This document shows, one piece after another, positions 14,890 through 62,641 of a stretch of DNA of 64,000 nucleotides. The position numbers were made by a program, and so were the translations under genes. Every line of letters begins with the position of its first letter. Position 1 is the stretch's first letter. This DNA comes from an uncultured Chloroflexia bacterium (GTDB taxonomy: Bacteria; Chloroflexota; UBA6077; JACCZL01). The notes under the pieces were generated by a model. The model had not been told where the DNA came from and made no database searches. It was given only the letters and a program-made list of their open reading frames with translations. The stretch spans positions 96,001 to 160,000 of the forward strand of contig CAVXYC010000030.1 in assembly GCA_963765765.1 (NCBI GenBank), in the 5' to 3' direction.

Positions 14890-14980
14890 ACATCAAGGCC
14901 GGCGGGTCGGAGTTCGCCTGACCTCGTGCTACAGTACTGGCCATTCCGCGCCGCAAGCACGTCTCGCCGGGGAGGGTGTC

Positions 14981-15932: not shown

Positions 15933-16022
15933 CGTCAGCTCGCTCGGTTGAAGGGACGTGAGCGACCTCGGGAACTTCGAGGACGGTCCCTGATGTCCTT
16001 TGATCAATAGAGAGGAACCCCA

Positions 16023-17688
16023 ATGCCACGGATGACCGGCTCACGCTATTTCGCGGAGATGATGCAGGGCTACGGCGTGACCCACATTTTCTTTGTGCCG
16101 ACCATGCTCTTGCCGGCGCTTGCCGAGATGGAGGACATGGGCATCCGGCGCGTGATGACGCATGGTGAGAAGGCCGCCGCGTATATGGCAGACGGTTATG
16201 CACGGGCGTCCCATCGGCCCGGGTATCTGTATGGCTCAGGCGATCGGCGCGGCCAATCTGGCGGCCGGTCTGCGCGATGCGTACATGGCTGGCTCGCCGG
16301 TAATCGCGCTCACCGGCGGTCAGGACGCGAGCTCGCGCTATCGACATCTCTACCAGGAGATCGAAGACTTCCCGATGTTCGAGCCGGTCACCCATGCAAA
16401 CATGTATCTGGATGCTCTTCCGCGTCTCCCGGATACCTTGCGGCAGGCATTCCGGGCTGCAACCACCTCGCCTGGGCCTGTTCACATTCAGATGCGTGGC
16501 ACGCACGGTCAGGTGCTGGAAAGCGAAGCCGATCTGGAGCTCGTCGTTGAAGACGCGTATCGCGTGTATCCGCCGTATCGGCCATCCGCTGATCCCGAGA
16601 TGGTGCGGCGGGCGCTACGGGTTCTGGCCGAAGCCGAGCGCCCGATTATCGTCGCTGGCGGTGGGGTGAGCGCGTCGGGCGCAGAAGCCGAGCTCGTAGA
16701 GCTGGCTGAGAAGCTCAACATCCCCGTGGCCACATCGCTCCAGGCGAAAGCCAGCATAGCGGGTGATCACCCACTTTCGGTCGGCGTCCCCGGCACTTAC
16801 TCACGCTGGTGCGCGAATCGGAGTATCGCCGAAGCCGATCTCGTGTTCTTTGTAGGAAGCCATACCGGGAGCCAGGTCACTAACAACTGGAAGATTCCCC
16901 GCCCGGGTACCACCGTCATCCAACTCGACATTGACGCGGCGGAGCTCGGACGCAACTATCCCAATCAAGTCTCACTCCACGGCGATGCCAGGGCCGTGCT
17001 GCGCCAGCTCATTGATGCGGCCGAGCCGCGTGCGGCTCGCGCCGAATGGCTTGACCTCATTCAGGGATACGTTCTCGAGTACCGGTCGGAGATGGAGCTG
17101 CAACGCACTTCAAACGCCGTGCCCATGCGACCCGAGCGGATCATGAAGGAGATCGGCGACTCGCTTCCAGACGAGGCAGTGGTGGTTGTGGACACCGGAC
17201 ATTCGGGGATGTGGGGAGCTCAGGCGCTGGAGCTCGACAAGCCGGGCCAGCGCTTCCTGCGCGCGGCGGGATCGCTCGGCTGGGCATTCCCGGCATCGCT
17301 CGGCGCAAAATGCGCTCTTCCAGATACACCAGTGATCTGCTTCACTGGCGACGGCGGCTTCTACTACCACTTAGCCGAGCTGGAGACTGCGGCGCGATTC
17401 GGCATCAACGCGGTGATTGTGGTGAACAACAATGCCTCCCTCAACCAGGAGACGCACTTATTCAATGAGGCATATGGCGGTCAGCAGCGCGGCCGCGCCG
17501 GCGAGATGTGGAAGTTCCATCCCACGAACTTGGTCCAGGTGGCCGAAGGTCTCGGCTGCCGCGGTGTTCGTGTGGAGCAGCCCGGCGACCTGGCCGACGC
17601 CCTACGTGATGCCCTGGCAGCGGACGGCCCGGTAGTGATCGACGCGATCAGCGATATCGAGGCGATGGCCGCGAGGGCCTGGGGATAA
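16023..17688 (+). CDS. Thiamine diphosphate-dependent enzyme (acetolactate synthase-like), indel near 16225
   Basis: HGEKAAAYMADGYARAS, GAANL, GSLGWAFPASLG, GDGGF..NN ThDP motif. Confidence 0.92.
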
Positions 17689-29527: not shown

Positions 29528-29592
29528 CTTCGGCCATCATCTCATCAAAGATTCTCGCCGCGCAGTGAAGCAAGCAGCGTGAATGCGATCGC

Positions 29593-31972
29593 ATGAACAA
29601 AAAAGAGCTCACCGAAACAGACATACGCACCAAGTTCATCACGCCCGCCATCTGCGGTGCCGATGGAACGAAGTGGGACAAGATGACCCAGTTGCGCGAG
29701 GAGTTCTACTTCACGCGCGGCCGTGTCATCGTGCGCGGAAAGAAAGTGAGTCGCGGCGCGGCCAAAAAGGTCGATTACATCCTCTATTACAAGCCCGGCA
29801 TTCCGCTCGCCCTTGTTGAAGCGAAGGACAACAACCACGCGGTCGGCGCGGGGATGCAACAGGCCCTCGAGTACGCGGAGTTCCTCGATATCCCCTTCGC
29901 GTACAGCAGCAATGGCGACGCGTTCCTGGAGCACGATCGGACCGGCACAGGGCCAACCGTTGAGCGCGAGATTCCGCTGGATCAATTCCCTTCACGGATG
30001 AGCTCTGGTCACGCTACAGCAAAGCGAGAGGACTCACGCCAGCCGAAGAAGAGGTAGCGACTCAGGAATACTACGAGGATGGCTCAGGCAAGGTGCCGCG
30101 CTACTACCAGCAGATCGCCATCAACCGGACCGTCGAGGCCATCGCCCGCGGCGAGAATCGCATTCTCCTCGTCATGGCCACCGGCACCGGCAAGACCTAC
30201 ACCGCGTTCCAGATCATCTGGCGGCTATGGAAGGCCGGTGCCAAGAAGCGGATCCTCTTCCTCGTCGATCGCAACATCCTGGCCGATCAGACAAAGACGA
30301 ACGACTTCAAACCGTTCGGTCAGGCGATGACCAAGATCACCAATCGCACGGTCGACAAGGCGTTTGAGATCTACCTCGCGCTGTATCAGGCGGTCACGGG
30401 AACTGAAGAAGAGCAGAACATCTACAAGGAGTTCTCGCCCGACTTCTTCGACCTGGTGGTGGTGGACGAGTGTCATCGCGGGAGCGCGGCCGACGACGCT
30501 TCGTGGCGAAAGATCCTCGAGTACTTCTCCTCGGCCACGCAGATTGGTTTGACGGCCACGCCCAAGGAGACGAAAGACGTTTCCAACATCGAGTACTTCG
30601 GCGATCCGATCTACACCTACTCGCTCAGGCAGGGAATCGACCGACGGATTCCTCGCCCCCTATAAGGTCATCCGCATCGGAATCGACAAGGACTTGGAAG
30701 GGTGGCGGCCTGAGAAAGGACAAGACGGATAAGTACGGCCAGCTCATCGAAGATCGCGAGTACAACGAGACGGATTTCGACCGAATCGCTCATCCTGGAG
30801 AAGCGCACCGAGGTCGTCGCCGCCAAGATCACCGAGTTCCTGAAGGCCACCGATCGCTTCGCCAAGACCATCGTCTTCTGCGAGAACATCGATCACGCCG
30901 AACGCATGCGGCAGGCGCTGGTGAACGCCAATCCGGACCTCGCCGCCGCGAACAGCAAGTACGTCATGCGGATCACGGGCGACAACGATGAAGGCAAGGC
31001 GCAGCTCGACAATTTCATCGACCCGGAGTCCACATTCCCGGTCATCGCCACCACCTCGCAGCTGATGACGACGGGCGTCGATGCGCAGACGTGCCGACTG
31101 ATCGTTCTCGACAAGCACATCGGCTCGATGACCGAGTTCAAGCAGATCATCGGTCGTGGCACGCGCATCAACGAGGACTACAACAAGCTCTACTTCACCA
31201 TCATGGACTTCCGCCGCGCCACGGCGCTGTTTGCCGATCCGAACTTCGATGGCGATCCGGTGCAAATCTACGAGCCAAGGCTGGCGATCCGCCCGTGCCG
31301 CCTGACGAACGCCAGACGGCCGGCAGCGAGACCCGGCGACGAGGGCGCAGACCTCCGGATGACGGCGGTGGACCTGTCGCTCCGACGGACCGCGCCAGCG
31401 AAGTACTACGTCAACGACGTGGAAGTCTCGCGTTGTCTCCGAGCGCGTCCAGTATCTCGATGCCGACGGCAAGCTCATCACCGAATCGCTCACGGACTAC
31501 ACGCGCAAGACGGTCCGCAAGGAATACGCGTCGTTGAACGCGTTCCTGAACGCCTGGAATGATGCCGACCGCAAGCAAACCATCATCGACGAACTCGCCA
31601 GCCAGGGCGTATTCCTCGATGAACTGGCGGAGCAGGTCGGGCCACGACTATCGATGCCTTCGATCTCGATCTGCCACGTCGCATTCGATCAGCCGCCGCT
31701 CACGCGGCGGGAGCGGGCCGAAAGGGTCCGCAAGCGCAACGTGTTCGCCAAGTACGGCGACAAAGCGCGCGCCGTACTCGATGCCCTGCTAGAGAAATAC
31801 GCCGACGCGCGGCATCGAAGAGCGTCGAGTCGCTCGAAATTCTCAAGGTGGACCCGCTGACGCACGTTTGGGACACCGGTCGAGATCGTCAATCTGTTCG
31901 GCGGCAAGGCAGCAAGTATCTCACTGCCATCCACGAACTCGAAATCGCAGCTCTATCAAGGAAGCAGCCTGA
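29593..31972 (+). CDS. hsdR: Type I restriction endonuclease subunit R (EcoAI-like), many indels
   Basis: [67 protein letters not shown]. Confidence 0.93.
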
Positions 31973-31976
31973 GTCT

Positions 31977-33439
31977 ATGGCCAACGTCTCCAACTCGTCA
32001 AAACCATCCAGGACATCATGCGCAAGGACGCCGGCACATACGGCGATGCGCAGCGCCTGGAACAGCTCGGCTGGATGTTCTTTCTGAAGATCTTCGACGA
32101 CCGCGAGAAGGAGCTGGAACTTCTCCGCGACGACTACAGGTCGCCGCTAGCGGATCATCTGCGCTGGTCTGCGTGGGCAAGCGACGACGAAGGAATCACC
32201 GGCGAGCGGTTACTCGACTTCGTCAACAACACGCTGCTCCCCAAGCTCAAGTCACTCGACCGGCGGCGGCGACAAGATCGCCGGCCTGATCCGCATGACC
32301 TTCGAGGATGCCAACAATTACATGAAGAACGGCACCCTCATGCGGCAGGTCATCAACAAGATCAACGGCATCGACTTCAACGCCTCTGATGACCGCCACA
32401 TGTTCGGCGACATCTACGAGAAGCTGCTCAAGGACCTGCAGTCCGCGGGTAACGCCGGCGAGTTCTACACGCCGCGCGCGGTGACGCAGTTCATCGTCGA
32501 GCAGGTCAATCCTCAGCTCGGCGAAACGATCCTCGATCCCGCCTGCGGCACCGGCGGCTTCCTCGTCTGCGCCATCGAGCACCTGCGCAAGCAGGCAAAG
32601 ACCGAGGTCGACGAGCGAACCATCCAGGAATGCTTCGCCGGCATCGAGAAGAAGCACCTGCCGCACGTGCTGTGCATGACCAATCTCCTTCTGCATGGCA
32701 TCGACGTCCCGTCCAATGTCCGCCATGACAACACGCTGGCGCGCCCGCTGCGCGACTGGTCGCCCGAAGGAACGCGTGGACGTGATCGTCACCAACCCGC
32801 CCTTTGGCGGCATGGAAGAGGACGGCATCGAGGCCAATTTTCCGGCCGAGTTCCGCACCGTGAGACCGCCGACCTTTTCCTCGTGCTGCTGATGAGGCTC
32901 CTGAAGCCCGGCGGCCGCGCCGGCCTGGTGCTGCCCGACGGCACGCTCTTCGGCGAAGGCGTGAAGACGCGCATCAAGGAAGCGCTTCTCACCGAGTGCA
33001 ATCTGCACACGATTGTCCGCTTGCCCAACGGCGTGTTCAATCCCGTACACCGGCATTCGCACGAATCTGCTCTTCTTCACGAAGGGCGCAGCCGACCACG
33101 GAGGTCTGGTATTACGAGCATCCATATCCACCGGGCGCCAAGAGCTACAACAAGGGCAAGCCGATTCGCATCGAGGAGTTCGACGGCCGAGCGAGTCGTG
33201 GTGGGACAAACCGCGTGGAAAACGAGCAGGCCTGGCGCGTTCCGATCGACCAGATCAAGGCCGGCAACTATCAACCTCGACCTCAAGAACCCACACGACC
33301 TCCGACACCGGCCCTGGCGACGTGGACCATCTCCTGCCGGAATACGAAAAGCTTCTCGCCCAGATCGCCGAGACCCGCGCCGCGCTCGAAGCAGGAACTG
33401 CAGCGCCGCCCTGGCGAGCTCAGCTGAACCAGCCGATGA
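31977..33439 (+). CDS. hsdM: Type I RM methyltransferase subunit M, many indels
   Basis: QDIMRKDAG, GEFYTPR, DPACGTGGFL, TNPPFGG, VLPDGTLFGEG; end coordinate approximate. Confidence 0.93.
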
Positions 33440-34165
33440 GGCTGGAGACCTTCTTCGAGAAATTTGATCAATCGCGTAATGTTCCCAACGCCGTTGCGAA
33501 AATGCGGGAGCTCGTTCTCCGGAATGGCGACAAGAGGGCGAATCGTCAGAACAAGACCCAGCAGATCCGACGGTTCCGAGCTTGCTAGACGAAATATTTG
33601 AAATTAGAGACAACTTCATCGGACGGAGGGCCGCGACAAACCGCGTCGACGGTAGTCAAATCGAGCGGTGCACACCGATTACATACCAGATGAATTGGGC
33701 GATGGACGAATTTCGTTACAGTGTTGCGAACTTCAATACGGCTACAGGTATCCGCGGTGATGAGCTACTTCGACGGCTGGAGCATACCTGGCTGGGTCCG
33801 GGCGATATCAATCGTGGTGACAATTCCTCGACTGCCGATGGAGCGAAGAGCGAGATTGAGATACTTAGCATTGGAAGCTGGTGACTTACAGCTCAATAGG
33901 CCGGGGTACGAATCTCGTGTAAGGCGCATGTATGTAGGTCGCGCAACCCGTGAGTGAATTGCTCGTGACTGATCGCTGTTGTCGGTAGAGCGACGCTGAA
34001 CGAATACGTGCTCTGGGAACTCACTCGGGCGACTGGAAGTTGATAGAACTCAATGTGAGGGAAGCGTCGGAGGTTACATTAAGCTGTGGGAAGTAAGATA
34101 GTTGATAGCTGATTTCCCTGTGCCTTGCGAGCGGAAGCGGATCGTGGCGCAAGGTGCTGACGGCC
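33436..34165 (+). pseudogene. hsdS: Type I RM specificity subunit S, about half length and of poor sequence quality
   Basis: MRLETFFEKFDQ..NAVAKMRELVL start; degraded E(Q)KRIVAKV conserved-region motif at about 34125-34160; no second TRD. Confidence 0.65.
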
Positions 34166-49760: not shown

Positions 49761-50114
49761 GTGACTGATTACTCGTCGCTCCTGGTTTACCTTGCACTGG
49801 TGGTCTTGTTGGCCGGCTTCATATTGCTGGTTATCGGCCGCCTATCTCCGTCGCGCCCATCGGAGGCTAAATCACGGCCGTACGAATGTGGTGTCTCAGA
49901 ACCTCAGCCTACGGCGGCCCGTTGGCCGATTCATTTTGCGCTCGTAGCCATGCTCTTCTTGATTTTTGATGTTGAAGCGTTGTTCTTCTATCCCTGGGCG
50001 GTCATCCTGCGGGAGCTCCGCTGGAATGGAATTCTGGCATTCTCGGGGTTCTTCGCCGTTCTCGGCGTGGGCTATATCTACGCTCGATCTCGGGGCGCGC
50101 TGAAATGGCGCTGA
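49761..50114 (+). CDS. nuoA: NADH-quinone oxidoreductase subunit A
   Basis: [20 protein letters not shown]. Confidence 0.95.
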
Positions 50115-50599
50115 ATATGGCAGCGTCGGATGGGCCGGGCCATGAGAAAGACGGAGCGCATGGATTCCTGCTCTCAAAGCTCGAGAGCTGGAGCCGTGAG
50201 AAGTCGCTCTGGCCGGTCACATTTGGACTGGCGTGCTGCGCTATCGAGATGATCTCCACATCCGCGGCGCGCTTCGATATCGCTCGCTTTGGATCTGAGC
50301 TTTTTCGACCCAGCCCACGTCAGGCGGACCTCATGATTGTCTCAGGCCGTGTGTCCCAAAAGATGGCGCCTGTACTGCTCGAGATTTACAACCAGATGCC
50401 GGAACCAAAGTGGGTCATCGCCATGGGCGATTGCGCCGCTTGCGGAGGCATCTTTAACAACTACGCGATCATCCAGGGTGTGGATAAGATCGTTCCCGTA
50501 GATGTGTACATCCCAGGCTGCCCGCCGCGTCCGGAGGCCTTACTCGACGGCATCATCAAATTGCAGGAGCGCGTCCACGAAGGTGCGACGCGCGCATGA
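50105..50599 (+). CDS. nuoB: NADH-quinone oxidoreductase subunit B
   Basis: [27 protein letters not shown]. Confidence 0.97.
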
Positions 50600-51060
50600 C
50601 CGAGAGGCTGGATCAGGCGCTCGACTCGCTGACGCTCACGGATCTCGAGCATGGCACGTCCGCGGATGGCATTGATTTTCTACGGGTTCCGGTGGATGCC
50701 ATACCGAGGCTGGTCGATGCAGTGATCGGCGCAGGATTTGGTCGATTCATTGATCTGACGGCTGTGGACGAGCCGCGTCGGGCCGATCGCTTTGAGCTCC
50801 AATACCTCCTTCACTCTATGCAGGATCAGCGTTGGCTGCGCCTAAAGGCGCGCACCGCCGAGCACGCGCCATCGATCGTAAGTCAATTTGAAGCGGCCAA
50901 CTGGTACGAGCGCGAAGTCTTCGATCTGTACGGAGTGTGCTTCGATGGACATCCGGGGCTTACTCGAATTCTGATGCCGGACGATTGGGACGGGCATCCG
51001 CTTCGCCGGGACGTGGATCTGGGCGGCGAGCCGGTTCAGTTCTCGGACAACATCTCGTGA
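50596..51060 (+). CDS. nuoC: NADH-quinone oxidoreductase subunit C
   Basis: [31 protein letters not shown]. Confidence 0.95.
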
Positions 51061-52331
51061 GTATTGAGACGCGCCCGGGTGCCGCTGAGATTGCCGAAGC
51101 GATGAGCTCAACGTTGACGCCAAGCCCGATGAACGGCAAGGGACCGGGCGTCGATTCGTCGACCGCACCTCATACCCTGCGGATCAACATGGGACCGCAG
51201 CACCCCTCGACCCATGGTGTGCTGCGTCTAGAGCTCGAGCTGGATGGCGAGATCGTAGTCTCCTGCAAGCCCATCATCGGGTACTTGCACACCGGCACCG
51301 AAAAGACCATGGAGAACCTGACGTATCTCCAGGCGCTGACTGTGACGGATCGCCTTGACTACCTGAACCCGATGGGCAACAACCTGGCGTATTCGCTCGC
51401 TGTCGAGGCTCTGTTCGACTGCGAGATTCCCGAGCGCGCCATTATTGGTCGGGTTCTGCTGGCCGAGCTGACGCGACTAAACTCGCATCTCGTCTGGCTG
51501 GGCACTACCGGGATCGATCTGGGCGCCAGCTCCGTGCTGCTCTATACGTTTCGCGAGCGTGAGGTCCTACTGGACTTCTTCGAGTCGCTTAGCGGCGCGC
51601 GCATGATGACCAGCTTTATTCGGCCCGGTGGTCTGGCCGATGATTTCACCGAGGATTGGTTCCAGGGCGTAGGAAAATTTCTTGATGACCTGCCGGCCCG
51701 AATCGACGAGTACGAGGCGTTGTTAACTCACAATCCCCTCTTCAGGGACCGCATGGTGGGCATTGGTGTCCTGGATGGACAGCGTGCGCTCAGCATGGGG
51801 GTTACGGGTCCGATCCTGCGAGCCAGCGGCATATCGCACGATATTCGGAAGGCGCGTCCGTATTCGGGTTACGATCAATTTGACTTCCATGTTCCCGTGG
51901 GCTCCCACGGTGATGCGTATGACCGATATCTGGTGCGGATCGAGGAGATGCGCGAAAGCGTGAAGCTCTGTAAGCAAGCGATAGCCAAATTGCCCGTCGG
52001 CCCGGTAAAGACCTCCAATCGGAAGGTGATGCCACCACCGCGAGAAGAGCTCGGACAGTCTATGGAAGCGGTGATTCACCATTTCAAGCTGTGGACCGCC
52101 GGTATGACGCCTCCGGCTGGTGAAGCGTACATCCCCGTTGAGTCCCCTCGTGGAGAGCTGGGTTTCTATGTCGTTAGCGACGGTTCAAACAAAGCCGTGC
52201 GGGTGCGCGAGCGAGCCCCATCCTTCGCCAACCTGCAGGCGCTGCCGATCATGGCGCAAGGCGGCCTGGTAGCCGACCTCATCGCAATCATCGCTAGCAT
52301 CGACCCGGTCCTGGGGGAGATCGACCGCTAG
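51057..52331 (+). CDS. nuoD: NADH-quinone oxidoreductase subunit D
   Basis: NMGPQHPSTHGVLR, GYLHTG, DRLDY, ESPRGE, DPVLGEIDR. Confidence 0.97.
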   Translation: MSIETRPGAAEIAEAMSSTLTPSPMNGKGPGVDSSTAPHTLRINMGPQHPSTHGVLRLELELDGEIVVSCKPIIGYLHTGTEKTMENLTYLQALTVTDRLDYLNPMGNNLAYSLAVEALFDCEIPERAIIGRVLLAELTRLNSHLVWLGTTGIDLGASSVLLYTFREREVLLDFFESLSGARMMTSFIRPGGLADDFTEDWFQGVGKFLDDLPARIDEYEALLTHNPLFRDRMVGIGVLDGQRALSMGVTGPILRASGISHDIRKARPYSGYDQFDFHVPVGSHGDAYDRYLVRIEEMRESVKLCKQAIAKLPVGPVKTSNRKVMPPPREELGQSMEAVIHHFKLWTAGMTPPAGEAYIPVESPRGELGFYVVSDGSNKAVRVRERAPSFANLQALPIMAQGGLVADLIAIIASIDPVLGEIDR

Positions 52332-52334
52332 CCG

Positions 52335-52907
52335 ATGGCGATCCTATCTGAAACCACCGAGGCCAGAATCCGCACCGAGGTGGAACGCTATCACCCGCAT
52401 TATCGAACGGCACTCCTGCCGTCGTTGAAGCATGCCCAGGCGGAGATTGGCTGGCTGCCGGCCGAAGCCATAGCCAGGGTGGCGGATCTCGTCGGTGTTT
52501 CGCACGCCGCGGCGGCTGAGCTTGCGCAGTTCTACTCGATGCTCCACACCGAGAATCACGGCCGTGTGCACGTCGAGGTGTGCGTACAGGTGCCGTGCGC
52601 GGTGTCTGGAGCTGAGCGATTGCTGCGATGGCTCAGCGAAGAGCTGGACATTCCACCGGGCGAGACGACAGCCGAGGGTATTCGGCTGGAGCGCACGTCC
52701 GAGTGCTTCGGCTCCTGTCATCGAGCGCCGATGTGCAGGGTGAATGAGGACTATCACGAAAACCTGACTCGAGATTCGGCCCGCGAGCTCGCGAGCACGA
52801 TTCGGGCGCGGCTCCTGGCCGAGAATGCTGCCCTCCAGGGTGTTGGCGTCGGTCGCGCCACCTCGGGCTCCACACCGCAGGAAAATGACGGAGAGCTGAC
52901 GTGGTGA
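52335..52907 (+). CDS. nuoE: NADH-quinone oxidoreductase subunit E
   Basis: FYSM, CVQVPC..CFGSC..AP 2Fe-2S motif. Confidence 0.93.
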   Translation: MAILSETTEARIRTEVERYHPHYRTALLPSLKHAQAEIGWLPAEAIARVADLVGVSHAAAAELAQFYSMLHTENHGRVHVEVCVQVPCAVSGAERLLRWLSEELDIPPGETTAEGIRLERTSECFGSCHRAPMCRVNEDYHENLTRDSARELASTIRARLLAENAALQGVGVGRATSGSTPQENDGELTW

Positions 52908-54190
52908 TCGACTATCAGCCCGTGCTTATTCCCAATCAGGGCCGCCCGACGCCGCTCTCGCTGCAAGAGTATCGCGATAAGGGTGGGTACCAGGGGCTCG
53001 AGACGGCCCTGACCAAGATGACGCCCGATGAGGTTATCGACGAGGTCAAGGCGGCCGGATTGCGCGGTCGAGGCGGCGCGGGATTTCCGACTGGATCGAA
53101 ATGGAGCTTTGTTCCACGAGATCCCGGGCCCAAGTATCTGGCCGTGAACGCGGATGAGTCTGAGCCAGGAACATTCAAGGACCGCGAGATCATGGAAACC
53201 GAGCCGCACATGCTGCTCGAAGGCATTGCGATCTGCTGCTACGCCATTGGCGCTCAGACGGCGTTCATCTACATCCGCGGTGAGTATGTGGTGGCAGCCG
53301 ATCGGTTGGACGCGGCAATCGTTGAGGCAAGAGAAGCCGGATTGCTGGGCGAGGGCATACTAGGCACACAGACCAATCTCACGGTTCACGTGTTTCGTGG
53401 CGCGGGTGCTTATATCTGCGGCGAAGAGACGGCGTTGCTGGAGTCGCTGGAAGGCCGGCGACCCATGCCGCGCTCGCGGCCCCCCTTTCCGGCTGTCGAG
53501 GGCCTGTACCGTCGCCCCACGTGCGTCAACAACGTGGAGACACTGGCCAACGTGCCACACATTCTCGCCCGAGGTAGCGCCTGGTATCAGTCGGTGGGTG
53601 AGCCGCCCCAAAATACTGGCCCGAAGATCTTCTGCCTCTCCGGTACGGTGAATCGTCGCGGCAACTACGAGCTGCCGTTGGGTGCGGTTACCGTCCGCGA
53701 GTTGATCGAGGACTATGGCGGAGGTGTCCCGGAAGGTCGCAAGATCAAGGGCGTCCTGCCGGCCGGCGCTTCTGCGCCGATTCTGCCTGAGTCAGCGTTG
53801 GATGCCAAGCTCAGCTATGACGGCATTCGCGACGCCGGCTCCATGCTTGGCTCGGCCAGCTTCATCGTGCTGGATGAGTCGGTGTGCATCGTGCGCGCGG
53901 CCGCTCGCATGGTGGAGTTCTTCCGCAATGAATCCTGCGGCAAATGCACGCCTTGTCGAGAGGGGACCATGTGGCTGCATCAGGTGCTTCTGAGGCTTGA
54001 ACGCGGGCGGGGCACGGAAGCAGACCTGGATCTACTGTTGTCTCTCTCGGGCGAGGTGAGCGGCAAGGTGTTGTGCGCGCTCGGTGACTTCGCCACGAGT
54101 CCCGTGACGGCTACGATCAAGCACTTCCGCGATGAGTATCTTCAGCACTTCGAGCTGGGCCATTGTCCCTCCGAGGACTGGGCGAATTGA
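52901..54190 (+). CDS. nuoF: NADH-quinone oxidoreductase subunit F
   Basis: GLRGRGGAGFPTG, NADESEPGTFKDR, GAGAYICGEETAL, ESCGKCTPCREG. Confidence 0.97.
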   Translation: MVIDYQPVLIPNQGRPTPLSLQEYRDKGGYQGLETALTKMTPDEVIDEVKAAGLRGRGGAGFPTGSKWSFVPRDPGPKYLAVNADESEPGTFKDREIMETEPHMLLEGIAICCYAIGAQTAFIYIRGEYVVAADRLDAAIVEAREAGLLGEGILGTQTNLTVHVFRGAGAYICGEETALLESLEGRRPMPRSRPPFPAVEGLYRRPTCVNNVETLANVPHILARGSAWYQSVGEPPQNTGPKIFCLSGTVNRRGNYELPLGAVTVRELIEDYGGGVPEGRKIKGVLPAGASAPILPESALDAKLSYDGIRDAGSMLGSASFIVLDESVCIVRAAARMVEFFRNESCGKCTPCREGTMWLHQVLLRLERGRGTEADLDLLLSLSGEVSGKVLCALGDFATSPVTATIKHFRDEYLQHFELGHCPSEDWAN

Positions 54191-56064
54191 GCGACCTCGT
54201 TACGCTCACCATTAACGGGCGCGAAGTCCGGGTACCCAAGGGAACCTTGGTAGTCGAGGCCGCGAAGCAGGTCGGCATCGAGATTCCAGTGTTCTGTTAC
54301 CACCCGAAGCTCAAGCCTGTTGGCGCCTGCCGTATGTGCCTGGTTGAGATCGAAAAGATGCCCCGTCTCCAGACCGCCTGCACTTCGCCGGTGGCGGAGG
54401 GCATGGTAGTGACAACGACGTCCGATCAGGTCATTCAGGCGCAGACTGGTGTCATCGAGCTCCTGCTTGCCAATCATCCGCTGGACTGTCCGATCTGCGA
54501 CAAGGGTGGCGAATGCCCGTTGCAGGACAATACCTTCAACTTCGGTCTGGGCGTCAGCCGCTTCACCGAGGAGAAGCGGCAAGCCGAGAAGGCGTTCCCA
54601 CTTTCCGATCGCATTCTCCTGGATCGCGAGCGCTGCATCATGTGCTACCGTTGCGTGCGCTTCCATCAGGAGATTCCCGGCGACGAGTCCCTGGCCGCGA
54701 TCAATCGCGGCGGCCTCACGGTCATTGGCACGCTCGAAGGCGAGTCGTACGACTCGCTGTTTTCCGGGAACACTATCGATATCTGTCCTGTGGGAGCGCT
54801 GACCAGCCGACAGTATCGGTTTCGCGCGCGCCCATGGGATCTCGATCGGACGCCGTCCATCTGCTCGGGCTGTGCCGTGGGCTGCAATACCGAGATTCAC
54901 AGTCGCCGAGGCGACGTCCTGCGGCTCGTTCCGCGCGAGAACCTGGAAGTCAACGACGAGTGGCTGTGCGACGCGGGCAGGTTCGATTCGCTGCCGCCAC
55001 TCTCGGAGCATCGTCAGCTCGAGCCGATGGAGCGGGTTGACGGTCAGATGCGTGCGACGACCTGGGATCAGGCATTGGACCGCGCGGCCGACGTCATCCG
55101 CACCCAGGGTATAAGACTGGCCGTGGGGCCAGAAATCTCGAACGAGGCGATCTGGGTACTCGAAAAGATTCATACGGCGTTCGACGGTGAAAGGCAATCA
55201 ACGCCGACGAACCCCTGGGTCTTGCACGGGCGAATGGAGTCACTTGTTGGCTGCAAGCTCATCGTCCTCGTTGGCCTGGATCCGTGGACGGAATTACCGA
55301 TCCTGGCTCTCTGGCTTCGGAAAGCTGTGGCCGCCGGAGCAAGGCTCATCGTTATTGGCGCTGAGAACGGTCTGCAACGCGACACGGCGCACTGGATTCG
55401 AGTGCCGGCGGGCGAGGAGACGGCTGTATTGCAGAGACTCATGTCAGATCCCACAACTGTGAGTACGGAGCAAGCTATTCCAGATCCAAGCGTTCTGGAG
55501 GTCTTTCACGGACGTCCCGCGGCTGTGCTGGCTGGCGCTCGGATTGGACAGGATTCAGACGCGCTGGCTGCGACGCGCGCACTTGCAGAGCGGCTGGAGG
55601 CTGTCTTTGGTGATGCGCCGGTGGGCATTCCGTCCATTGGCGCAAATGCGCGCGGCCTACATGACCTTGCGCCCGAGATTCCGACAACCGCGGGCTCGGC
55701 TTGTACGCTACGGTTCGGAGATGGTGTCACGGGTCCACGCCCACTCAACGGCGAGTCAATACAGGCTGCCTACCGAGCCGGCGCGGGGGATGTAGGAAAC
55801 TTGGTCGTGCTGCTTCCCCTGGCGCATCCCTACGAGCAAGACGGATCGTTCACCAATCTGGAAGGTCGAGTGCAGCTGCTACGCGCCGGTGCCCGCATGC
55901 CGGGTCAGGCGCTGGCTGACTGGGAGCTCGCGGTGAGATTGGCGCAAAAACTCGATGTGCCGGTTCCGGCAGACCTCGAGTCCATTCGTGCCGATATAGC
56001 CGCGGCGCACGCCGACTATGGACGCACGCTGTTGAGACCGGTGCTGGAGCCGACGCGTGACTGA
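54187..56064 (+). CDS. nuoG: NADH-quinone oxidoreductase subunit G (short C-terminal part)
   Basis: [43 protein letters not shown]. Confidence 0.95.
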
Positions 56065-57040
56065 GCTGGCCATCGATGTTATCCGCTCGGCTGTGCTCAT
56101 TCTGATGCTGCTCACGGGCATGGCGTACATGACGCTCTTTGAGCGGCGTGTCATCAGTCGAATGCAGGTCCGACTCGGTCCGAATCGCACCGGCCCATCG
56201 GGCTTGCTGCAGCCACTCGCGGATGCGCTCAAGCTGTTTTTCAAGGAAGACGTCGTCCCGGCAGCGGCGGATCGTTTGATCTACCCGATCGCGCCGGCGC
56301 TTGCGCTCATCGCAGCGCTCGCTTCATTCGCGGTTATCCCGTTGGGCCCACCGGTTGAGCTTGGCGGTGTGACGATCGCCCCGCAAATTGTCGATCTCCC
56401 GGTCAGCGTGCTCTATCTCATTGGCGCCAGCAGCCTTGGAGTGTACGGGGTCGTGTTCGGCGGATGGGCATCAGGCTCAAAGTACTCGCTTCTGGGCGGT
56501 TTACGCGCGGCCGCGCAAGTCGTTTCTTACGAGCTGATCCTAGGGCTTGCTGTCGTTGGCGTGGTGATGATCAGCGGCACGCTGGCTCTAGGGGGGATCG
56601 TCGATGCGCAGTCGCGCTCTGTCTGGTACATCCTGCTCCAACCGCTAGGATTCGCGCTGTACTTCATCGGCGCCGTGGCAGAGGTAAACCGTGCGCCGTT
56701 CGATTTACCTGAGGCAGAGACCGAGCTGGTGGCCGGCTATCACACGGAATATAGCGGGATGCGCTTTGCGATGTATTACATCGCCGAGTACGTCAACATG
56801 ATTACGGTCTCCGCCGTGGCGGCGACGCTCTTCCTGGGTGGTTGGCTGGGACCCTTTGTACCCGGCCCGCATTGGCTGCTGTTAAAGATGTTGGCGTTTC
56901 TCTTCTTGTTCGTCTGGCTGCGCGCGACACTGCCGCGGCTTCGCTATGACCAGTTGATGGGGCTTTCCTGGTCGGTACTCTTGCCGCTTGGACTGCTGAA
57001 CGTGGCACTAACGGCGCTGGCCGTTGCCGCGTTCGGTTAG
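56057..57040 (+). CDS. nuoH: NADH-quinone oxidoreductase subunit H
   Basis: [48 protein letters not shown]. Confidence 0.97.
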
Positions 57041-57054
57041 AAGGAGAACAGCTC

Positions 57055-57630
57055 GTGTTGCTGGATAGTGTGCGCGCGGTCGCACTCGGCTTCTGGACAA
57101 CGCTCAAGCACACGCTGCGGCCCCCGGTCACGCTGTCATATCCGGAAGTCAAGCGCCAGCCGGCACTCAAGTTCCGCGGACGGCACCGACTTTATGCCAC
57201 TGAAGATGGATTGGAGCGCTGCATCGGCTGCGAGCTCTGTGCGGGGGCATGCCCGTCGCAGGCGATCCTCGTTGAAGCCGAAGAGAACGATCCCGAACAT
57301 CCGGTATCACCCGGTGAGCGTTACGCGCGACGGTACGAAATCAACATGATTCGCTGCATCTTCTGCGGTTACTGCGAGGAAGCGTGCCCTGTGGATGCCA
57401 TCAAGCTGGGGCCGGAGTACGAGCTCTCCGATTTCAACCGTGAGAGCTTTATCTACACCAAAGAGATGCTGCTGGACCCCGAGAAGTACGCTCCTCGCAA
57501 CCAGTATCACGCGGACGTGGACCGCTCTATCGACGAGCGCGGCGTCCACACGACGCTTCTCGAGACATACCGCAAGCACTATCCCAGCAGTACATATGAG
57601 GACGCTCCTGAGGCGAGGGAGCGGCGCTAG
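57055..57630 (+). CDS. nuoI: NADH-quinone oxidoreductase subunit I
   Basis: CIGCELCAGACP and CIFCGYCEEACP. Confidence 0.97.
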   Translation: MLLDSVRAVALGFWTTLKHTLRPPVTLSYPEVKRQPALKFRGRHRLYATEDGLERCIGCELCAGACPSQAILVEAEENDPEHPVSPGERYARRYEINMIRCIFCGYCEEACPVDAIKLGPEYELSDFNRESFIYTKEMLLDPEKYAPRNQYHADVDRSIDERGVHTTLLETYRKHYPSSTYEDAPEARERR

Positions 57631-57631
57631 C

Positions 57632-58127
57632 TTGCAGGACCTTTTCGTCCCCGCGGCGATCGTCGCGGCGCTGACTATCGCCGGGGCCCTTGGCGTTGTG
57701 CTTTCTCGCCGACCAGTGCACGCTGCCCTGGCGCTGCTGGGACACACCCTGGGTCTCGCCGGTTTATTCCTGGTGCTCTCAGCGGAGCTCGTGGCGATGG
57801 GGCAAATCGTGATTTACTCTGGCGCCATCGTGGTGCTTTTCCTTTTTGTTGTGGCGCTGCTTCCAACAGGCGGATTCGATGGGCGCGTTTGTCTCCGGTC
57901 GCGCTGCTTCGGCGTTGGTCATGGTGGCTATCGTTCTCGGGACGCTGGGCGTGGTGATCGGAGTGGGCGCCCCTGTGGCGGCGGCGACGACAGATCACTC
58001 CGTTGAATCGGTTGGTCGCGCACTGTTTGACCAGCTCATTGTCGCATTTGAGCTCACCGCACCCCTGCTCCTCGTGGCAGTGATTGGCGCCGTGGTGATC
58101 TGGCGCCGGCAGGAGCGGGTGCGATGA
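57632..58127 (+). CDS. nuoJ: NADH-quinone oxidoreductase subunit J, indel near 57880
   Basis: PVHAAL, QIVIYSGAIVVLFLFVV, then FEL..LLLVAVIGAV in a second frame. Confidence 0.92.
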
Positions 58128-58169
58128 GGGTTGCAACATCGCGGCTAGTCAGTTCAATGGTCGTCTCAA

Positions 58170-58472
58170 TTGACCACTGAAAACCTCCTCCTCACCACCT
58201 CCGCGATTCTCTTCGCGATCGGTATCGGAGGTGTCCTCTATCGCCGCAATCCGATCTCGCTGCTCATGTCGATCGAGGTCATGCTCAACGCGGCCAATCT
58301 CCTCATTGTCCTTGGTGCTCGGGTGCATGGCGCTGCGACCGGGCAAGCCGTGGCGCTGATTGTCTTGGTGGTTGCGGCCACCGAGGCCGTTGTGGGCCTG
58401 GCGATCGCATTGGCGCTCTTCCGCGATCGTGAGGGCGCTGACATCGATGAGCCCAGCGAGGTACACGGTTGA
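58170..58472 (+). CDS. nuoK: NADH-quinone oxidoreductase subunit K
   Basis: RRN..LMSIEVMLNAANL, VAATEAVVGLA. Confidence 0.96.
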   Translation: MTTENLLLTTSAILFAIGIGGVLYRRNPISLLMSIEVMLNAANLLIVLGARVHGAATGQAVALIVLVVAATEAVVGLAIALALFRDREGADIDEPSEVHG

Positions 58473-60186
58473 GCGGATTGCTCCTCTGGGGCTGGCTGTT
58501 CACGTTGCCCGGTCTGCTTCTTACAGCGTCAGGTTTAGGGCGGCCGAAAGGTGTTTTGAGCGTGCCGGGCCCGGCGCGGTGCTTGGTCTCGTGGCGTTGG
58601 TGGCACTCGTTTCCGGCGGTGGCGCGGAGGCGCGCTTTCCCGACTGGCTGCCATTCCTGCCCGACGGCGCGTTCCATCTGCGCGCCGATTCCCTGGCGGC
58701 GGCGATGCTGACAGTTGTGGGACTTGTCTCTACCGCGGTTTACGTCTACTCACTCGGATACATGAAGGGCGACCCTGGCCAGGCGCGCTATTTTGCTTTC
58801 CTGGACCTGTTCTTGGCGGCCATGACGCTCCTGGTTCTCGGCGGTAATCTGGCTGTTTTGCTCATTGGTTGGGCGGGCGTGGGTCTGACAAGCTTCCTGT
58901 TGATCTCATTCTGGAATAGCAGACCTGATAGTCAGGATAGGCCGTTGAAGGCTGGGCTCCAGGCGCTTACGGCGAACGCGATAGGCGACGCTGCCCTGAT
59001 GCTGGCGATCGTGCTATTGCCGGTTGGCTGCGGCGACTTGACAACGCTGCAGACCGGCCAATGCACGGCGGGTCTGGCGGGCCCGGGATTGCTCGGAGCT
59101 CTCATTCTCATTGGTGCCTGCGCGAAGTCAGCTCAGGGGCCGCTCTACTTCTGGCTACCTAGCGCGATGGCGGGTCCCACGCCAGTGAGCGCACTCATCC
59201 ACGCAGCCACAATGGTCGCCGCGGGTGTGTATCTCCTGGTGCGGACCTCGCCGCTACTGGCACTCTCCCAGTCGATACTCAACGCGACCCTTATCCTGGG
59301 TGTCGCGACGGCTATCCTGGCAGCCTTAATCAGCCTTTTCCAGGGCAACTTCAAACGCAGTCTGGCGTACTCAACCGTGAGCCAGCTCGGGTTCATGTTC
59401 GCGGCGATTGGCCTCGGTGCGCCGTTCGCGGCGTTCTTTCACCTGGTGACGCATGCCTCGTTCAAGGCGCTTCTATTTCTCTCAGCCGGAAATGTCATTC
59501 ACTATAGAAACGGCGAAGAGCAGCTTGCGAATCTCGGCGGTCTGCGACGCGCGCTCCCATGGGCTTACGCGGGCTTTCTCATCGGCTCGCTGGCGTTGAT
59601 CGGCGTTCCTTTCACTGCCGGCGCATTCAGTAAGGACGCAATTTTGGACGCTGCGCTGCAACGAGGGCCGATAGTGGCCTGGCTCCTCGCGGGAGCCACC
59701 CTCCTTTCCGGTTTGTACAGCGGCCGCTTGTTCTTCGGCGTGTTCCACGGGCCTGAGTCCCAGCAGCATGCGGGTGAAGGGCACTATGAGACTGAGCCCG
59801 CGACCATGCGCTGGCCACTCGTTCCCCTGGCTGCCGGTGCCCTCTTGCTTGGCTACCTCGAATGGCCGAACGCAATTCTGAGTCAGCTACTCGCTGGCGC
59901 TGTGGAACATGCGGAGCCGGTTTCCGCCATCAGCCCAATCGGATTGGCGGCATTCGCGCTCGGGATAGTCGGCTTTGGTGCTGCCGCCTTTTGGCGCGGA
60001 AAAGTCGTATCTTCGATTTCCACCGAAGCGGAGCCCGTTGGCGTTCGCTGGGTGGAGCCAATCGCAGCGGCTGCGGAAGGTATCTCGCGCTCGCTCGCCA
60101 GTGTTCACAGCGGTCATCTGGGCCGATATCTGCTCGCCTCACTCATCGGCATCGTGGCGATCGTCTGGATTGGACTGCGAGGATGA
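58469..60186 (+). CDS. nuoL: NADH-quinone oxidoreductase subunit L, atypical (short lateral helix; indel near 58580)
   Basis: YSLGYM, KSAQ.PL..WLP.AMAGPTPVSALIHAATMV, AYSTVSQLG, FHL.THA.FKA, FSKD, C-terminal SG.L.RY TM. Confidence 0.93.
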
Positions 60187-60196
60187 GGCGGATATT

Positions 60197-60299
60197 CTGT
60201 GGTCTGCGGCGGCCTTCGCCGCCTTTCCGAGAGGCTGGAAGCCGGCCACGACGAGGCTCCACTTGTCAAAAGTGCGGCGAAAACCGTCGCAGTCCAAAA
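60197..60299. repeat. Palindromic REP-like element at the nuoM position, inside an 11-bp direct repeat
   Basis: GGTCTGCGGCGGCCTTCGCCGCCTTT ... AAAGTGCGGCGAAAACCGTCGCAGTCC; TGCGAGGATGA at 60176-60186 and 60305-60315. Confidence 0.78.
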
Positions 60300-60340
60300 T
60301 TGGGTGCGAGGATGATCGCGTTCCCGAGAGTAGCCTCATA

Positions 60341-61670
60341 ATGCTCTCCTCCATTCCGCCCCACTTAATGGCCGTTATTGTGCTTGTAATTGGCGCGCTT
60401 GTCATTCTTGCATGCGCGGCTCCTCTCACTCAGCGCGCCGGGCTGGTCTCGGCATTGACGTTCATTGCGGCCGTCTGCGCGGGCCTCGTGGGATTTAGCG
60501 ATCCGACGACACGTATTGCTACGCTGGGTCTGGCCGGCGTGGCCGCGATTGTCGGCCTTCTAGTGCCCACATTGGAGCTCGAGCTACCTGCGCAACGACC
60601 CGAATCGGCAGCGCTGGTGCTGCTGGGAGCGAGCGGCGGAGTTGCCCTCGCCGCCGCGGGAGATCTCTTGCAGCTCGCGGTCGGGCTTCGAGGTACTCTC
60701 TCTGAGCGCTGTCGTGCTCATTGGTATGAGCGCTGGCCGCGCACCCGTCGAGGCGGCCTTCAAATATTTTGTGTTGGCTACCGTGAGCTTGTCAGCGCTG
60801 CTCTTTGGTCTGGGGCTGGTCTACCTGGCCACCGGAAGCATTGCGTTCCCAAGCCTCTCGGGGTCGCCCTCGCCCTTAGTGGTCGCGGGTATTGCTCTAA
60901 TTGGCGTAGGGATCGCGTTCGAGCTCGCCCTAGTCCCTCTCCATTGGGGACCGCTTGGTGCCTATACGGCTGCCTCGCCCGGTATTGCTGGTTTTGTCAT
61001 GGCCGCCTCGAAGCTTGCCGCGGCACTGGCTCTTGGCCGGCTGGCGTTGGCGGCGGGCGTGGAGCTCGACGACGTGCTCGCCGTCATAGGAGTGCTGAGC
61101 ATTGTCTGGGGAACGGTGGGGGCCCTGGCTCAGCAGGACCTTCGACGACTTCTGGCCTACTCAGCGGTCGTCCACGCAGGGTTTATTGCGCTCGCTGCCG
61201 GTTCGGGTGTTGAAGGACGAATAGCCGCGGCTTTTTATGGACTCAGCTACGCTGCCATGTCACTGCTCACATTTGCCGCCATCTCGGGGCGAGGCTCCGG
61301 AGCCGTGCCACTTTCACGACTGACCGCGGAAGGGCTGGGTGCCGGCCGCTCCCTGGCGCTCACGTTGGCACTCTTGTCGCTGGCGGGGGTACCGCCCACC
61401 CCAGGCTTCTGGGCCAAACTAGCCGTCCTCGGTCCGGCCTGGACTAACGCGGGACCACTGGTCACGACTATCGCCGTGGCCGGCGGTGTGGCAGGTGCCC
61501 TGTACTACCTCAAACCTATCCCGAACCTGCTCGCGTCGCTTCGCCTACCAGAAGTGGCGCGACCCACGTCGCGCTCAGCTATGATGCTGGCTGGCGTGGC
61601 CGTCACGGTTCTGGGCATTGTGCCTGGCGTAGCGTGGGCGCTGGCTATCCTGGCCACGGGCACGCGCTAG
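60341..61670 (+). CDS. nuoN: NADH-quinone oxidoreductase subunit N, atypical (indel near 60685)
   Basis: EVLSLS, EAAFKYFV, VPLHW, ASKLA, RRLLAYS.V.HAG, LSLAGVPP..GFWAK, YYLK. Confidence 0.9.
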
Positions 61671-62641
61671 TCTGTCACTGTGGGGTCGTCCTGGCTCGAA
61701 GTCGAGGGCGCAGAAGTATTCTCGGTCAGCTCCATATCCTGTTGCCGGCGGTACCAAAGCCACAACAGCCCGATTCCGACGAGCTCGGCGACGATAGAGA
61801 CGAGACCAGCCTCCGGTCCAAAGGCGCCACCCGTGATGGATTCGGGCCCGATGACGCGATGGCTGACAAGTCCCCCGGCGTCGATCCCCGAGACCGGGAA
61901 CCCGAATAGTGGTCCCTCGCCGAAATTCCATCCGAAGTGAATGCCGATGGGCAGCCAGAGTGAGCGAGTCACGAGATAAGCGACGGCCAGGAGAACACCG
62001 GCGAACGCAACTCCCAGGCTCGCGATGACACTCGAATTGTCATTGAAAATATGCAAGAACCCGAAGATAACTGACGAGATCACGACAGCGGGTGTGGTGC
62101 CCAATCCGGATTCCAGATTCTGAAGCAGATACCCCCGCACGATGAGCTCCTCATTCCAGGCGACAGCCAGGAACACAAGCACCATGATCATGAGCCCCAC
62201 AAGGGGACTACCGCGACCTCGCCAGCCGACTTGATCGATCGCGATCCAGCCCAGGGCCAGCTCGGTGACGAAGATGCCCGCTTGTAAGGCGACTCCCAGC
62301 AGCGCGCCGCCAAGGAGATACTTGATCCACGGGCGTTCGAGTGAAAGACCGAGGCTCACAAAGGAGCGCCGGTCCAGCCAACGTCGGGCCACACACACCG
62401 TGATGGTGGCCACGACGATTCCAACACCGTTCGAGATAAGGGCAATCGGATCCGATGAGCCGAGGGAACCCTGAATCAAGGCCCTCGGGTCGATAAAGAG
62501 TCCGATGAGCAGCACAATGGCTGTCTGCAGCACCATGGCCAGTGCGCCAAAGACCAATAGGCGCCAGCCCGTGCGGAGGCGGCCTTCGCTGTCTATTAGG
62601 AGCTTGCGCATGGGTTCGGTAGCGGCCTCTCGGCGCGCCAT
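61667..62641 (-). CDS. CPBP (CAAX protease / Abi) intramembrane metalloprotease
   Basis: EELIVRGY, FGFLH, LWLPIGIHFGWN, TGGAFGPEAG. Confidence 0.93.
   Translation of the reverse strand: MARREAATEPMRKLLIDSEGRLRTGWRLLVFGALAMVLQTAIVLLIGLFIDPRALIQGSLGSSDPIALISNGVGIVVATITVCVARRWLDRRSFVSLGLSLERPWIKYLLGGALLGVALQAGIFVTELALGWIAIDQVGWRGRGSPLVGLMIMVLVFLAVAWNEELIVRGYLLQNLESGLGTTPAVVISSVIFGFLHIFNDNSSVIASLGVAFAGVLLAVAYLVTRSLWLPIGIHFGWNFGEGPLFGFPVSGIDAGGLVSHRVIGPESITGGAFGPEAGLVSIVAELVGIGLLWLWYRRQQDMELTENTSAPSTSSQDDPTVTD

Follow-up and report, generated by a model that had tools for sequence, protein, structure and literature searches.

Canonical NDH-1, the complex I of Thermus thermophilus, Escherichia coli and Paracoccus denitrificans, has three antiporter-like subunits, NuoL, NuoM and NuoN. 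Variants with extra pump subunits are known, namely, the 2M complex I of Nitrospira, green complex I and the five-pump complex of Ca. Manganitrophus. The 2M type is defined by an extra NuoM/MrpD gene together with an insertion in the lateral helix, which in the 2M and five-pump variants amounts to 26 residues per one extra NuoM (PMC9040806). Laboratory truncations (Yarrowia lipolytica without ND4/ND5 and E. coli deletions) yielded unstable or sub-stoichiometric enzymes and conflicting results, according to the summary in a 2026 preprint (10.64898/2026.10.02.756245). The 11-subunit NDH-1-like complexes without the NADH module (N-module) are likewise known (PMC3144371). Analysis of a 64,000-nucleotide stretch of DNA from an uncultured Chloroflexia bacterium (the window) revealed a nuo operon at positions 49761 to 61670 of the plus strand, in which nuoL is followed by nuoN and nuoM is missing. 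The window corresponds to positions 96001 to 160000 of contig C30 of a 6.49-Mb metagenome-assembled genome (MAG) in 33 contigs (91.8% complete, 6.85% contamination), referred to below as G000. The operon quite likely encodes an NADH-oxidizing complex I with two antiporter-like subunits, NuoN and NuoL, in which NuoL would dock directly on NuoN by means of a lateral helix that is about 40 residues shorter. This enzyme is probably a natural short-arm version of complex I in uncultured soil bacteria.

Comparison with described complexes

The operon resembles canonical NDH-1 in the other 13 gene products, which are encoded in the usual order. The best matches in the Protein Data Bank (PDB) were Nqo12/NuoL (E value of 1.8e-80) and NuoN (E value of 1.6e-34). 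Compared with canonical NDH-1, the window type has no NuoM, the NuoL linker that holds the lateral helix measures about 37 instead of 78 to 79 residues, and the glutamate of transmembrane helix 5 (TM5) of NuoL is replaced. The NuoN proteins of this type (referred to as M-less, like the operons and NuoL proteins that belong with them) have a TM7 break without proline, the lysine of which is often a glutamate.

As in the variants with extra pumps, the number of antiporter-like subunits differs from the canonical three, and the lateral helix is altered in length accordingly. The change goes in the opposite direction, in that one subunit is absent and about 41 residues are deleted, whereas those variants have 26 residues inserted; neither an extra NuoM/MrpD gene nor a lateral helix insertion was found. 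The Mrp module (MrpA-MrpD) and the arms of the MBH, MBS and FHL type also have one NuoL/MrpA-like subunit beside one MrpD/NuoN-like subunit, and the MrpA chains 6z16_A and 7qru_A are among the PDB matches of M-less NuoL. Unlike these systems, the M-less operon encodes a full peripheral arm with NuoEFG plus NuoA, NuoH, NuoJ and NuoK. No Mrp-specific genes (MrpB/E/F/G-type) and no NiFe large subunit are present in the operon, all 13 genes of which are of the Nuo type.

The laboratory truncations are similar in that complex I has fewer antiporter-like subunits, and such experiments bear on the proton number. In those enzymes, however, it is the distal subunits that were deleted; the window type lacks the middle subunit, retains the distal one in adapted form and is a conserved natural arrangement. 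The 11-subunit type corresponds to a second operon of G000, located on contig C27, which has no nuoEFG. The window operon is the reverse of this type, with NuoEFG present (between nuoD and nuoH) and NuoM missing.

The nuoL-nuoN junction and the proteins that flank it

The nuoL gene (58469 to 60186, plus strand) stops at 60186 and nuoN (60341 to 61670, plus strand) starts at 60341, which leaves a gap of 154 bp. No NuoM-like sequence was detected in the window: tblastn with the NuoM of G000 itself gave only paralogous matches inside nuoL and nuoN. The NDH_I_M model, searched over G000, had its sole match above the cut-off on another contig and none at the operon. Coordinates and tblastn result agree with the first-pass annotation of this DNA, which had reported a 154-bp gap without NuoM-like sequence. 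Its description of the operon as tightly packed holds for nuoA to nuoL but not for nuoL and nuoN, which are separated by a repeat. This spacer (60187 to 60340, no strand assigned) folds as a strong hairpin (minimum free energy of -73.8 kcal/mol), and its 41-nt core has 12 further matches on 10 contigs of G000. The spacer is a copy of a small palindromic interspersed repeat that landed between nuoL and nuoN of G000 and is not a relic of nuoM. It is particular to G000, as relatives have no spacer at this junction.

To compare the locus with other genomes, 41 genomes of the same order and class were searched. Orthologues of the window NuoN, at 53 to 63% identity, were found in families f1, f3, f5 and f7, and 12 loci were fetched. 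In all 11 loci with an orthologous NuoN, the genes run from nuoA to nuoL and then to nuoN, with nothing in between. In nine of these relatives, nuoL and nuoN share 4 nt at the stop-start junction, and the two genes are translationally coupled; the offsets in the other two are -1 and 0. The twelfth locus, that of G039, comes from another family, encodes a NuoN with only 42% identity and has an ordinary nuoM between nuoL and nuoN.

A species-wide scan with an alignment of M-less NuoN returned 38 loci, two of which (28 to 31% identity) were unrelated. In 33 of the remaining 36 loci, nuoL lies directly before nuoN, and three loci begin at nuoN and are not judgeable. Ten of the 36 loci duplicate the first set, and one (L048) comes from an unpublished genome (G051). 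All 34 distinct genomes with a readable junction have nuoL and then nuoN; the NuoL-NuoM-NuoN set of canonical NDH-1 is thus without nuoM in the window operon and in 34 related operons. The depositors labelled the carriers as Chloroflexota, Planctomycetota and Myxococcota/Deltaproteobacteria; the label "Proteobacteria" of one locus (L043) is off, as its genome (G015) belongs to the same order as G000. Carriers labelled alike by different depositors cluster in the NuoN tree described below. None of the 38 loci of the scan was seen to come from a cultured organism. No conserved downstream gene that might stand in for NuoM was found among 18 loci and the window, in which no open reading frame (ORF) downstream of nuoN was shared by more than three other loci, these being close kin.

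The M-less NuoL proteins differ from ordinary ones in the lateral helix. An alignment was made of 31 M-less and 11 ordinary NuoL sequences, the ordinary set being drawn from the same order and class of Chloroflexota (the protein of G000 itself, nine from relatives and that of the G039 operon). The linker between TM15 and TM16, which comprises the lateral helix, has 30 to 53 residues, typically 35 to 41, in 31 of 31 M-less proteins and 78 to 79 residues in 11 of 11 ordinary ones. About 41 alignment columns between TM15 and TM16 are missing from M-less NuoL, and its lateral helix is not long enough to pass two neighbouring subunits. AlphaFold2 modelled a helix at residues 521 to 539, between TM15 (486 to 506) and TM16 (544 to 569), in the M-less NuoL of G005 (579 aa; mean pLDDT of 80.3). 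In the ordinary NuoL of G000 (647 aa; mean pLDDT of 72.8), helices extend over residues 550 to 612, between TM15 (522 to 544) and TM16 (624 to 646). Confidence in the TM15-TM16 region is low in both models, which were made in the same way; this is to be expected when a clamp is modelled alone. Comparison with T. thermophilus Nqo12 by phmmer gave 35 residues (M-less) versus 72, with a second aligned stretch that alone was not significant.

Relay residues were counted as alignment columns at nine NuoL positions, given here in E. coli numbering. D178, K229, H254, H334, K342, K399 and D400 are kept in all 31 M-less proteins and H338 is kept in 25 of them. The TM5 glutamate (E144) is present in all but one of the 11 ordinary NuoL proteins; all 31 M-less ones have another residue there, namely, threonine (20), alanine (9), serine (1) or methionine (1). 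The window NuoL has alanine at the TM5 position, and the other relay residues are present. Four Myxococcota-labelled loci (L067 to L070) encode an M-less NuoL with a tail of about 60 to 110 residues, rich in lysine, arginine and glutamate, after TM16; in three of them (L068 to L070), a nuoK-L-N cluster has no nuoG, nuoH or nuoI ahead of it.

The identity of the retained second subunit was examined in a maximum-likelihood tree (quick LG+G4 search) of 35 M-less NuoN, 13 ordinary NuoN, 13 NuoM and, as the outgroup, 8 NuoL proteins. Ten duplicates, L048 and proteins of less than 400 aa were left out, and the ordinary sequences came from this order and class. The 35 M-less NuoN proteins form one clade (SH-aLRT of 100) on a long stem. 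This clade is sister to ordinary NuoN (SH-aLRT of 99), and NuoM stands apart (100). The tree indicates that the retained subunit is of the N type. The M-less NuoN proteins keep the TM5 glutamate in 34 of 35 cases and the lysines of TM8 and TM12 in every case; NuoM has glutamate at the TM12 position (13 of 13). At the TM7 position, lysine is found in 10 and glutamate in 25 of the 35 proteins, the latter including the window NuoN. The proline of the TM7 break is missing in 35 of 35 M-less NuoN proteins and present in 26 of 26 ordinary NuoN and NuoM proteins.

A two-chain structure prediction for NuoL and NuoN (the G038 pair, each with its own alignment) scored 0.54, and the best of three controls scored 0.00. 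Of 157 solved complexes and 215 mismatched pairs, 116 and 2, respectively, reached the mark used for such predictions; with scores of 0.60 or less, only 18 of the 157 solved complexes did so, along with both of the passing mismatches. The runs agreed in at least 93% of contacts, with a partner pLDDT of at least 79. The prediction lends weak support to a contact between NuoL and NuoN, and the pass may reflect mere likeness because L-M and M-N interfaces have already been solved.

These results indicate that the missing nuoM is a genuine, conserved trait of this operon type and did not arise by deletion during assembly. The first-pass annotation had argued in the same sense and had referred to independent changes in NuoL and NuoN. 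The junction is shared by 34 genomes, and the changes in both proteins were found to be clade-wide, fitting a direct L-N junction. The annotation had also pointed to close relatives as the place where a nuoM might turn up at this locus; none of the 11 relatives with an orthologous NuoN has one there.

Alternative explanations

Contig C27 of G000 carries a second operon, nuoABCDHIJKLMN (143900 to 157250), with 11 genes, no nuoEFG and an intact NuoM (569.8 bits). It is conceivable, although unlikely, that the complex of the window operon contains this NuoM in trans and that the operons share parts, NuoM coming from one and perhaps NuoEFG from the other. Such borrowing is possible in this lineage because NuoM is found elsewhere in 40 of the 41 order-level genomes, including G000 (the tally includes the unpublished G006; the exception, G013, is 74% complete). 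In G000 and in each carrier relative, the sole NuoF to exceed the curated cut-off is encoded within the M-less operon, so that some cross-talk between the gene sets can be imagined; the other NuoF-like genes of these genomes have lower scores and are longer. The same finding suggests that the M-less operon encodes the NADH-linked complex I of the lineage, whatever donor the 11-gene complex uses. Genomes of family f2, which belongs to the same order, carry ordinary 14-gene operons in place of the M-less one.

Evidence against borrowing comes from the NuoL linker, which in 31 of 31 M-less proteins is about 41 residues too short for an extra subunit, and from the translational coupling of nuoL and nuoN in 9 of 11 relatives. 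In addition, the NuoM of C27 groups in the tree with the ordinary NuoM of 11-gene operons and not with the window operon. A genome-wide check for a nuoM outside the operon, as proposed earlier, thus did find one, on C27, but it is not an orphan and it lies in the ordinary NuoM clade. Three MAGs from outside the order are suggestive in the same direction. G042 has two Proton_antipo_M genes in 5.1 Mb, namely, the L and N of the operon, and one NuoH, while G048 and G049 have the L-N pair of the operon plus weak, distant antiporter-like genes. NuoM above the cut-off was found in none of these three MAGs, the completeness of which is not reported. Twelve other genomes, tested in the same manner, do carry further antiporter-like genes. 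In G048 and G049, a strong NuoH is located on a separate contig. Two clusters of three adjacent genes in relatives of G042 (L095, G441:C145; L096, G436:C43) were considered as an M-containing sister operon and rejected: their products are 28 to 31% identical to any NuoL, NuoM or NuoN and seem to form some other multi-subunit antiporter-like system.

Slightly less probable than borrowing is a decay of the operon in this strain, in which the breaks seen in nuoJ, nuoL and nuoN would be real and the membrane arm would no longer be made. The nuoJ gene (57632 to 58127, plus strand) changes frame at about 57880 owing to one extra base and consists of a piece from 57632 to about 57880 and a piece from there to 58127. 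The nuoL gene changes frame at about 58565 to 58580 (near 58570), where one base is apparently missing in a G/C run, and then continues to 60186. In nuoN, one extra base changes the frame at about 60689, which divides the gene into 60341 to about 60689 and the remainder to 61670; the span of 60341 to 61670 given for nuoN in the first-pass annotation is correct as a gene but not as a single ORF. Decay would agree with the position of all three breaks in the last 4 kb, with none in nuoA to nuoI, and the other nuo operon of the genome could take over.

Logan contigs of four public metagenome runs (X1 to X4) were placed on positions 57600 to 61700. At 57880, X1 and X3 have a single covering contig each, and both of these contigs are without one base of the window; at 60689, the same is true of X1, X2 and X4. 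All other-run contigs over the two sites thus lack the extra base, and they are otherwise identical to the window or show 1 or 2 differences. X1 holds 0.61 of the sampled words. The cover by these contigs has gaps: several bins are bare, including the nuoL break, a point that leaves room for decay, and no single contig spans 60186 to 60341. In the 11 relatives, nuoJ and nuoN are single ORFs without exception.

Frame breaks are found in other genes of the window as well. A Pfam scan of the 116 ORFs upstream of the operon revealed at least five other genes that are divided between overlapping frames: a 3-hydroxyisobutyrate-dehydrogenase-type gene (14885 to 15929), a TPP enzyme gene (16011 to 17685), a VanW-type gene (24782 to 26753), the type I restriction R subunit gene (HsdR; 29569 to 31857, in at least four pieces) and the type I restriction methylase gene (HsdM; 31973 to 33464). 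A further split gene is located on contig C28 of G000. Because contigs of other runs are without the extra base at two sites, other genes in the window are split and nuoJ and nuoN are intact in 11 of 11 relatives, the three frame breaks most likely reflect consensus errors in an assembly that is prone to indels. Breaks of the same type were seen in nuoD, nuoF and nuoG of another locus (L029, G030). Both extra bases (57870 to 57881 and 60683 to 60692) sit in a TTCGA context, and the window encodes an N6 DNA methylase; one may speculate that a systematic base-calling error at a modified motif produced them.

That nuoM is missing from the operon because the nuoL-nuoN region of this MAG was mis-assembled or collapsed is extremely improbable and already contradicted: the assembly is error-prone and no single contig spans the whole L-N spacer, but the junction is common to 34 other genomes from many independent assemblies, NuoL and NuoN form a distinct clade with features of their own, and an X4 contig covers 60236 to 60386 with one difference from the window.

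Several points weigh against the interpretation of the operon as a working complex I with two antiporter-like subunits. The window copy is broken in three genes and the nuoL break lies outside the contig cover, while X1 may be the source sample and so would not be independent. The co-occurrence of NuoM in the order leaves room for borrowing in this lineage, and NuoM may seem absent from G042, G048 and G049 simply because contigs are missing. Both the tree and the linker comparison drew their ordinary sequences solely from this order and class of Chloroflexota. Intact M-less proteins fall below the curated cut-offs, with 388 to 402 bits against 407.5 for NuoL and 182 to 218 bits against 332.6 for NuoN. 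The helix deletion of about 41 residues exceeds the 26 residues per NuoM, and the geometry is therefore not simply that of one subunit less; the anchor probably sits differently and not just one subunit closer. Finally, one or both of NuoL and NuoN may pump differently or not at all, because the TM5 glutamate of NuoL is lost throughout (31 of 31), the TM7 lysine of NuoN is changed to glutamate in 25 of 35 proteins and the TM7 proline is lost in all 35. Overall, the operon represents a real conserved complex I variant with co-adapted subunits, the function of which we infer.

Gene content, predicted activity and distribution

NCBIfam models assigned the plus-strand ORFs between 49761 and 61670, in this order, to NuoA, B, C, D, E, F, G, H, I, J, K, L and N. 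Scores above the curated cut-off were obtained for NuoB, D, F, G, H, I and K, and scores below it for NuoA, C and E. The product of nuoA (49761 to 50114) matches NuoA models with 84.5 bits, which is under the equivalog cut-off, and is 64 to 73% identical to the NuoA of relatives. For the quinone module (Q-module), NuoB (50105 to 50599; 238.6 bits, cut-off of 116) has the tandem-Cys and PGCPP motifs in its translation, and NuoC (50596 to 51060) reaches 108.6 bits with NuoC_fam (cut-off of 122.45). NuoD (51057 to 52331) reaches 550.2 bits with TIGR01962 (cut-off of 459.35). Its start is uncertain, either GTG at 51057, which overlaps the nuoC stop, or ATG at 51102, and NiFe ligand motifs (N- and C-terminal Cys pairs) are absent from its translation in the window. 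NuoI (57055 to 57630) scores 169.3 bits with NF004537 (cut-off of 163).

The genes of the N-module are nuoE (52335 to 52907; nuoE_fam, 132.6 bits, cut-off of 142.4), nuoF (52901 to 54190; 588 bits, cut-off of 558.65) and nuoG (54163 to 56064; TIGR01973, 483.7 bits, cut-off of 470.05). The NuoG of the window is a short form of 633 aa that covers model positions 1 to 435 of 606. Among the membrane subunits, NuoH (56057 to 57040) scores 358.1 bits with NF004741 (cut-off of 305) and NuoK (58170 to 58472) scores 96.7 bits with NF004320 (cut-off of 57), while the two ORF pieces of nuoJ match the N- and C-terminal halves of NuoJ models. NuoL, with its short lateral helix, and NuoN were also identified by NCBIfam models, each in two frames in this assembly; NuoN was placed in the M-less clade by way of its orthologues. 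The small membrane subunits NuoA, H, J and K are thus all present. As in canonical NDH-1, the N-module comprises NuoE, F and G with flavin and Fe-S motifs, and the Q-module comprises NuoB, C, D and I, with a NuoD free of NiFe ligands. Cofactor motifs are visible in NuoB, D, E, F, G and I. A complete NADH module and a complete Q-module had been recorded in the first-pass annotation, and all of their subunits were identified here, some below the cut-off. The flanks are unrelated to the operon, with a phosphoribosyltransferase upstream and an Rce1-like protease on the other strand downstream.

In the proposed enzyme, NADH would be oxidized at NuoF and electrons would pass via the usual clusters to quinone at NuoD/B/H, all parts for this being present. 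The membrane arm would end after NuoN and NuoL, and the enzyme would assemble and work without any NuoM. Since one antiporter-like subunit is missing, and with it one uptake/transfer module, the enzyme would be expected to translocate fewer protons per NADH than the ordinary one, most simply 3 instead of 4 H+ per 2 electrons. Given the altered residues at the junction and in TM7 of NuoN, the number could also be lower than 3 H+ per 2 electrons. The first-pass annotation had likewise supposed a lower H+/2e- ratio, which might suit a small redox span or high flux. Given the midpoint potentials, a 3-proton enzyme would be thermodynamically comfortable with a low-potential quinone such as menaquinone, for which a 4-proton enzyme would be marginal, and the short arm may thus be matched to such a quinone. 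G000 (91.8% complete) yielded no match to MenA (TIGR00751) or to MqnA/D-type proteins (PF02621). Only a UbiA-like prenyltransferase (138 bits, under the cut-off) was found, encoded about 2 kb beyond nuoA of the C27 operon.

A fuller scenario is slightly favored over its negation. According to it, a natural two-antiporter complex I would have had a single origin, by loss of NuoM, removal of about 40 residues from the NuoL clamp helix and rewiring of charges at the N-L junction. It would have spread among Chloroflexota, Planctomycetota and Myxococcota, would be the NADH-linked complex I of these cells and would pump at most 3 H+ per 2 electrons.

The M-less variant is rare. A profile of M-less NuoN detected it in 16 of 401 sampled Chloroflexota genomes from five families (one, G090, unpublished): four of five genomes of f1, plus G000, four of four of f3, one of one of f5, one of one of f7 and five of five of f29, with none in all other families. 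In a library of 1.84 billion representative proteins, 11 proteins score 326 to 516 bits with this profile and a few fragments come next; below the M-less matches, a plateau of ordinary NuoN begins at about 215 bits, and 3465 proteins have E values up to 1e-30 in total. Among these NuoN-like clusters, roughly 10 full-length ones and some fragments are thus set off from the rest. A full-text literature search, which covered journals outside subscription, returned no description of a complex I operon without nuoM, and the variant is new within the literature searched. Published surveys have scored operons with missing subunits as "no complex I" (PMC4453560) or "Nuo-Partial" (PMC12361115), and the supplements of these surveys may list such cases. 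Because surveys of this kind set aside operons with missing subunits, M-less carriers are likely mis-scored in metabolic reconstructions.

The coupling of one quinone reduction to four pumped protons, and the share of each antiporter-like subunit in it, is still debated. If the proposed two-antiporter enzyme is real, a natural complex I without the middle pump subunit would allow the stoichiometry to be measured directly and the structure of a direct N-L junction to be determined. Such an enzyme could serve directly to test whether every antiporter-like subunit accounts for one proton.

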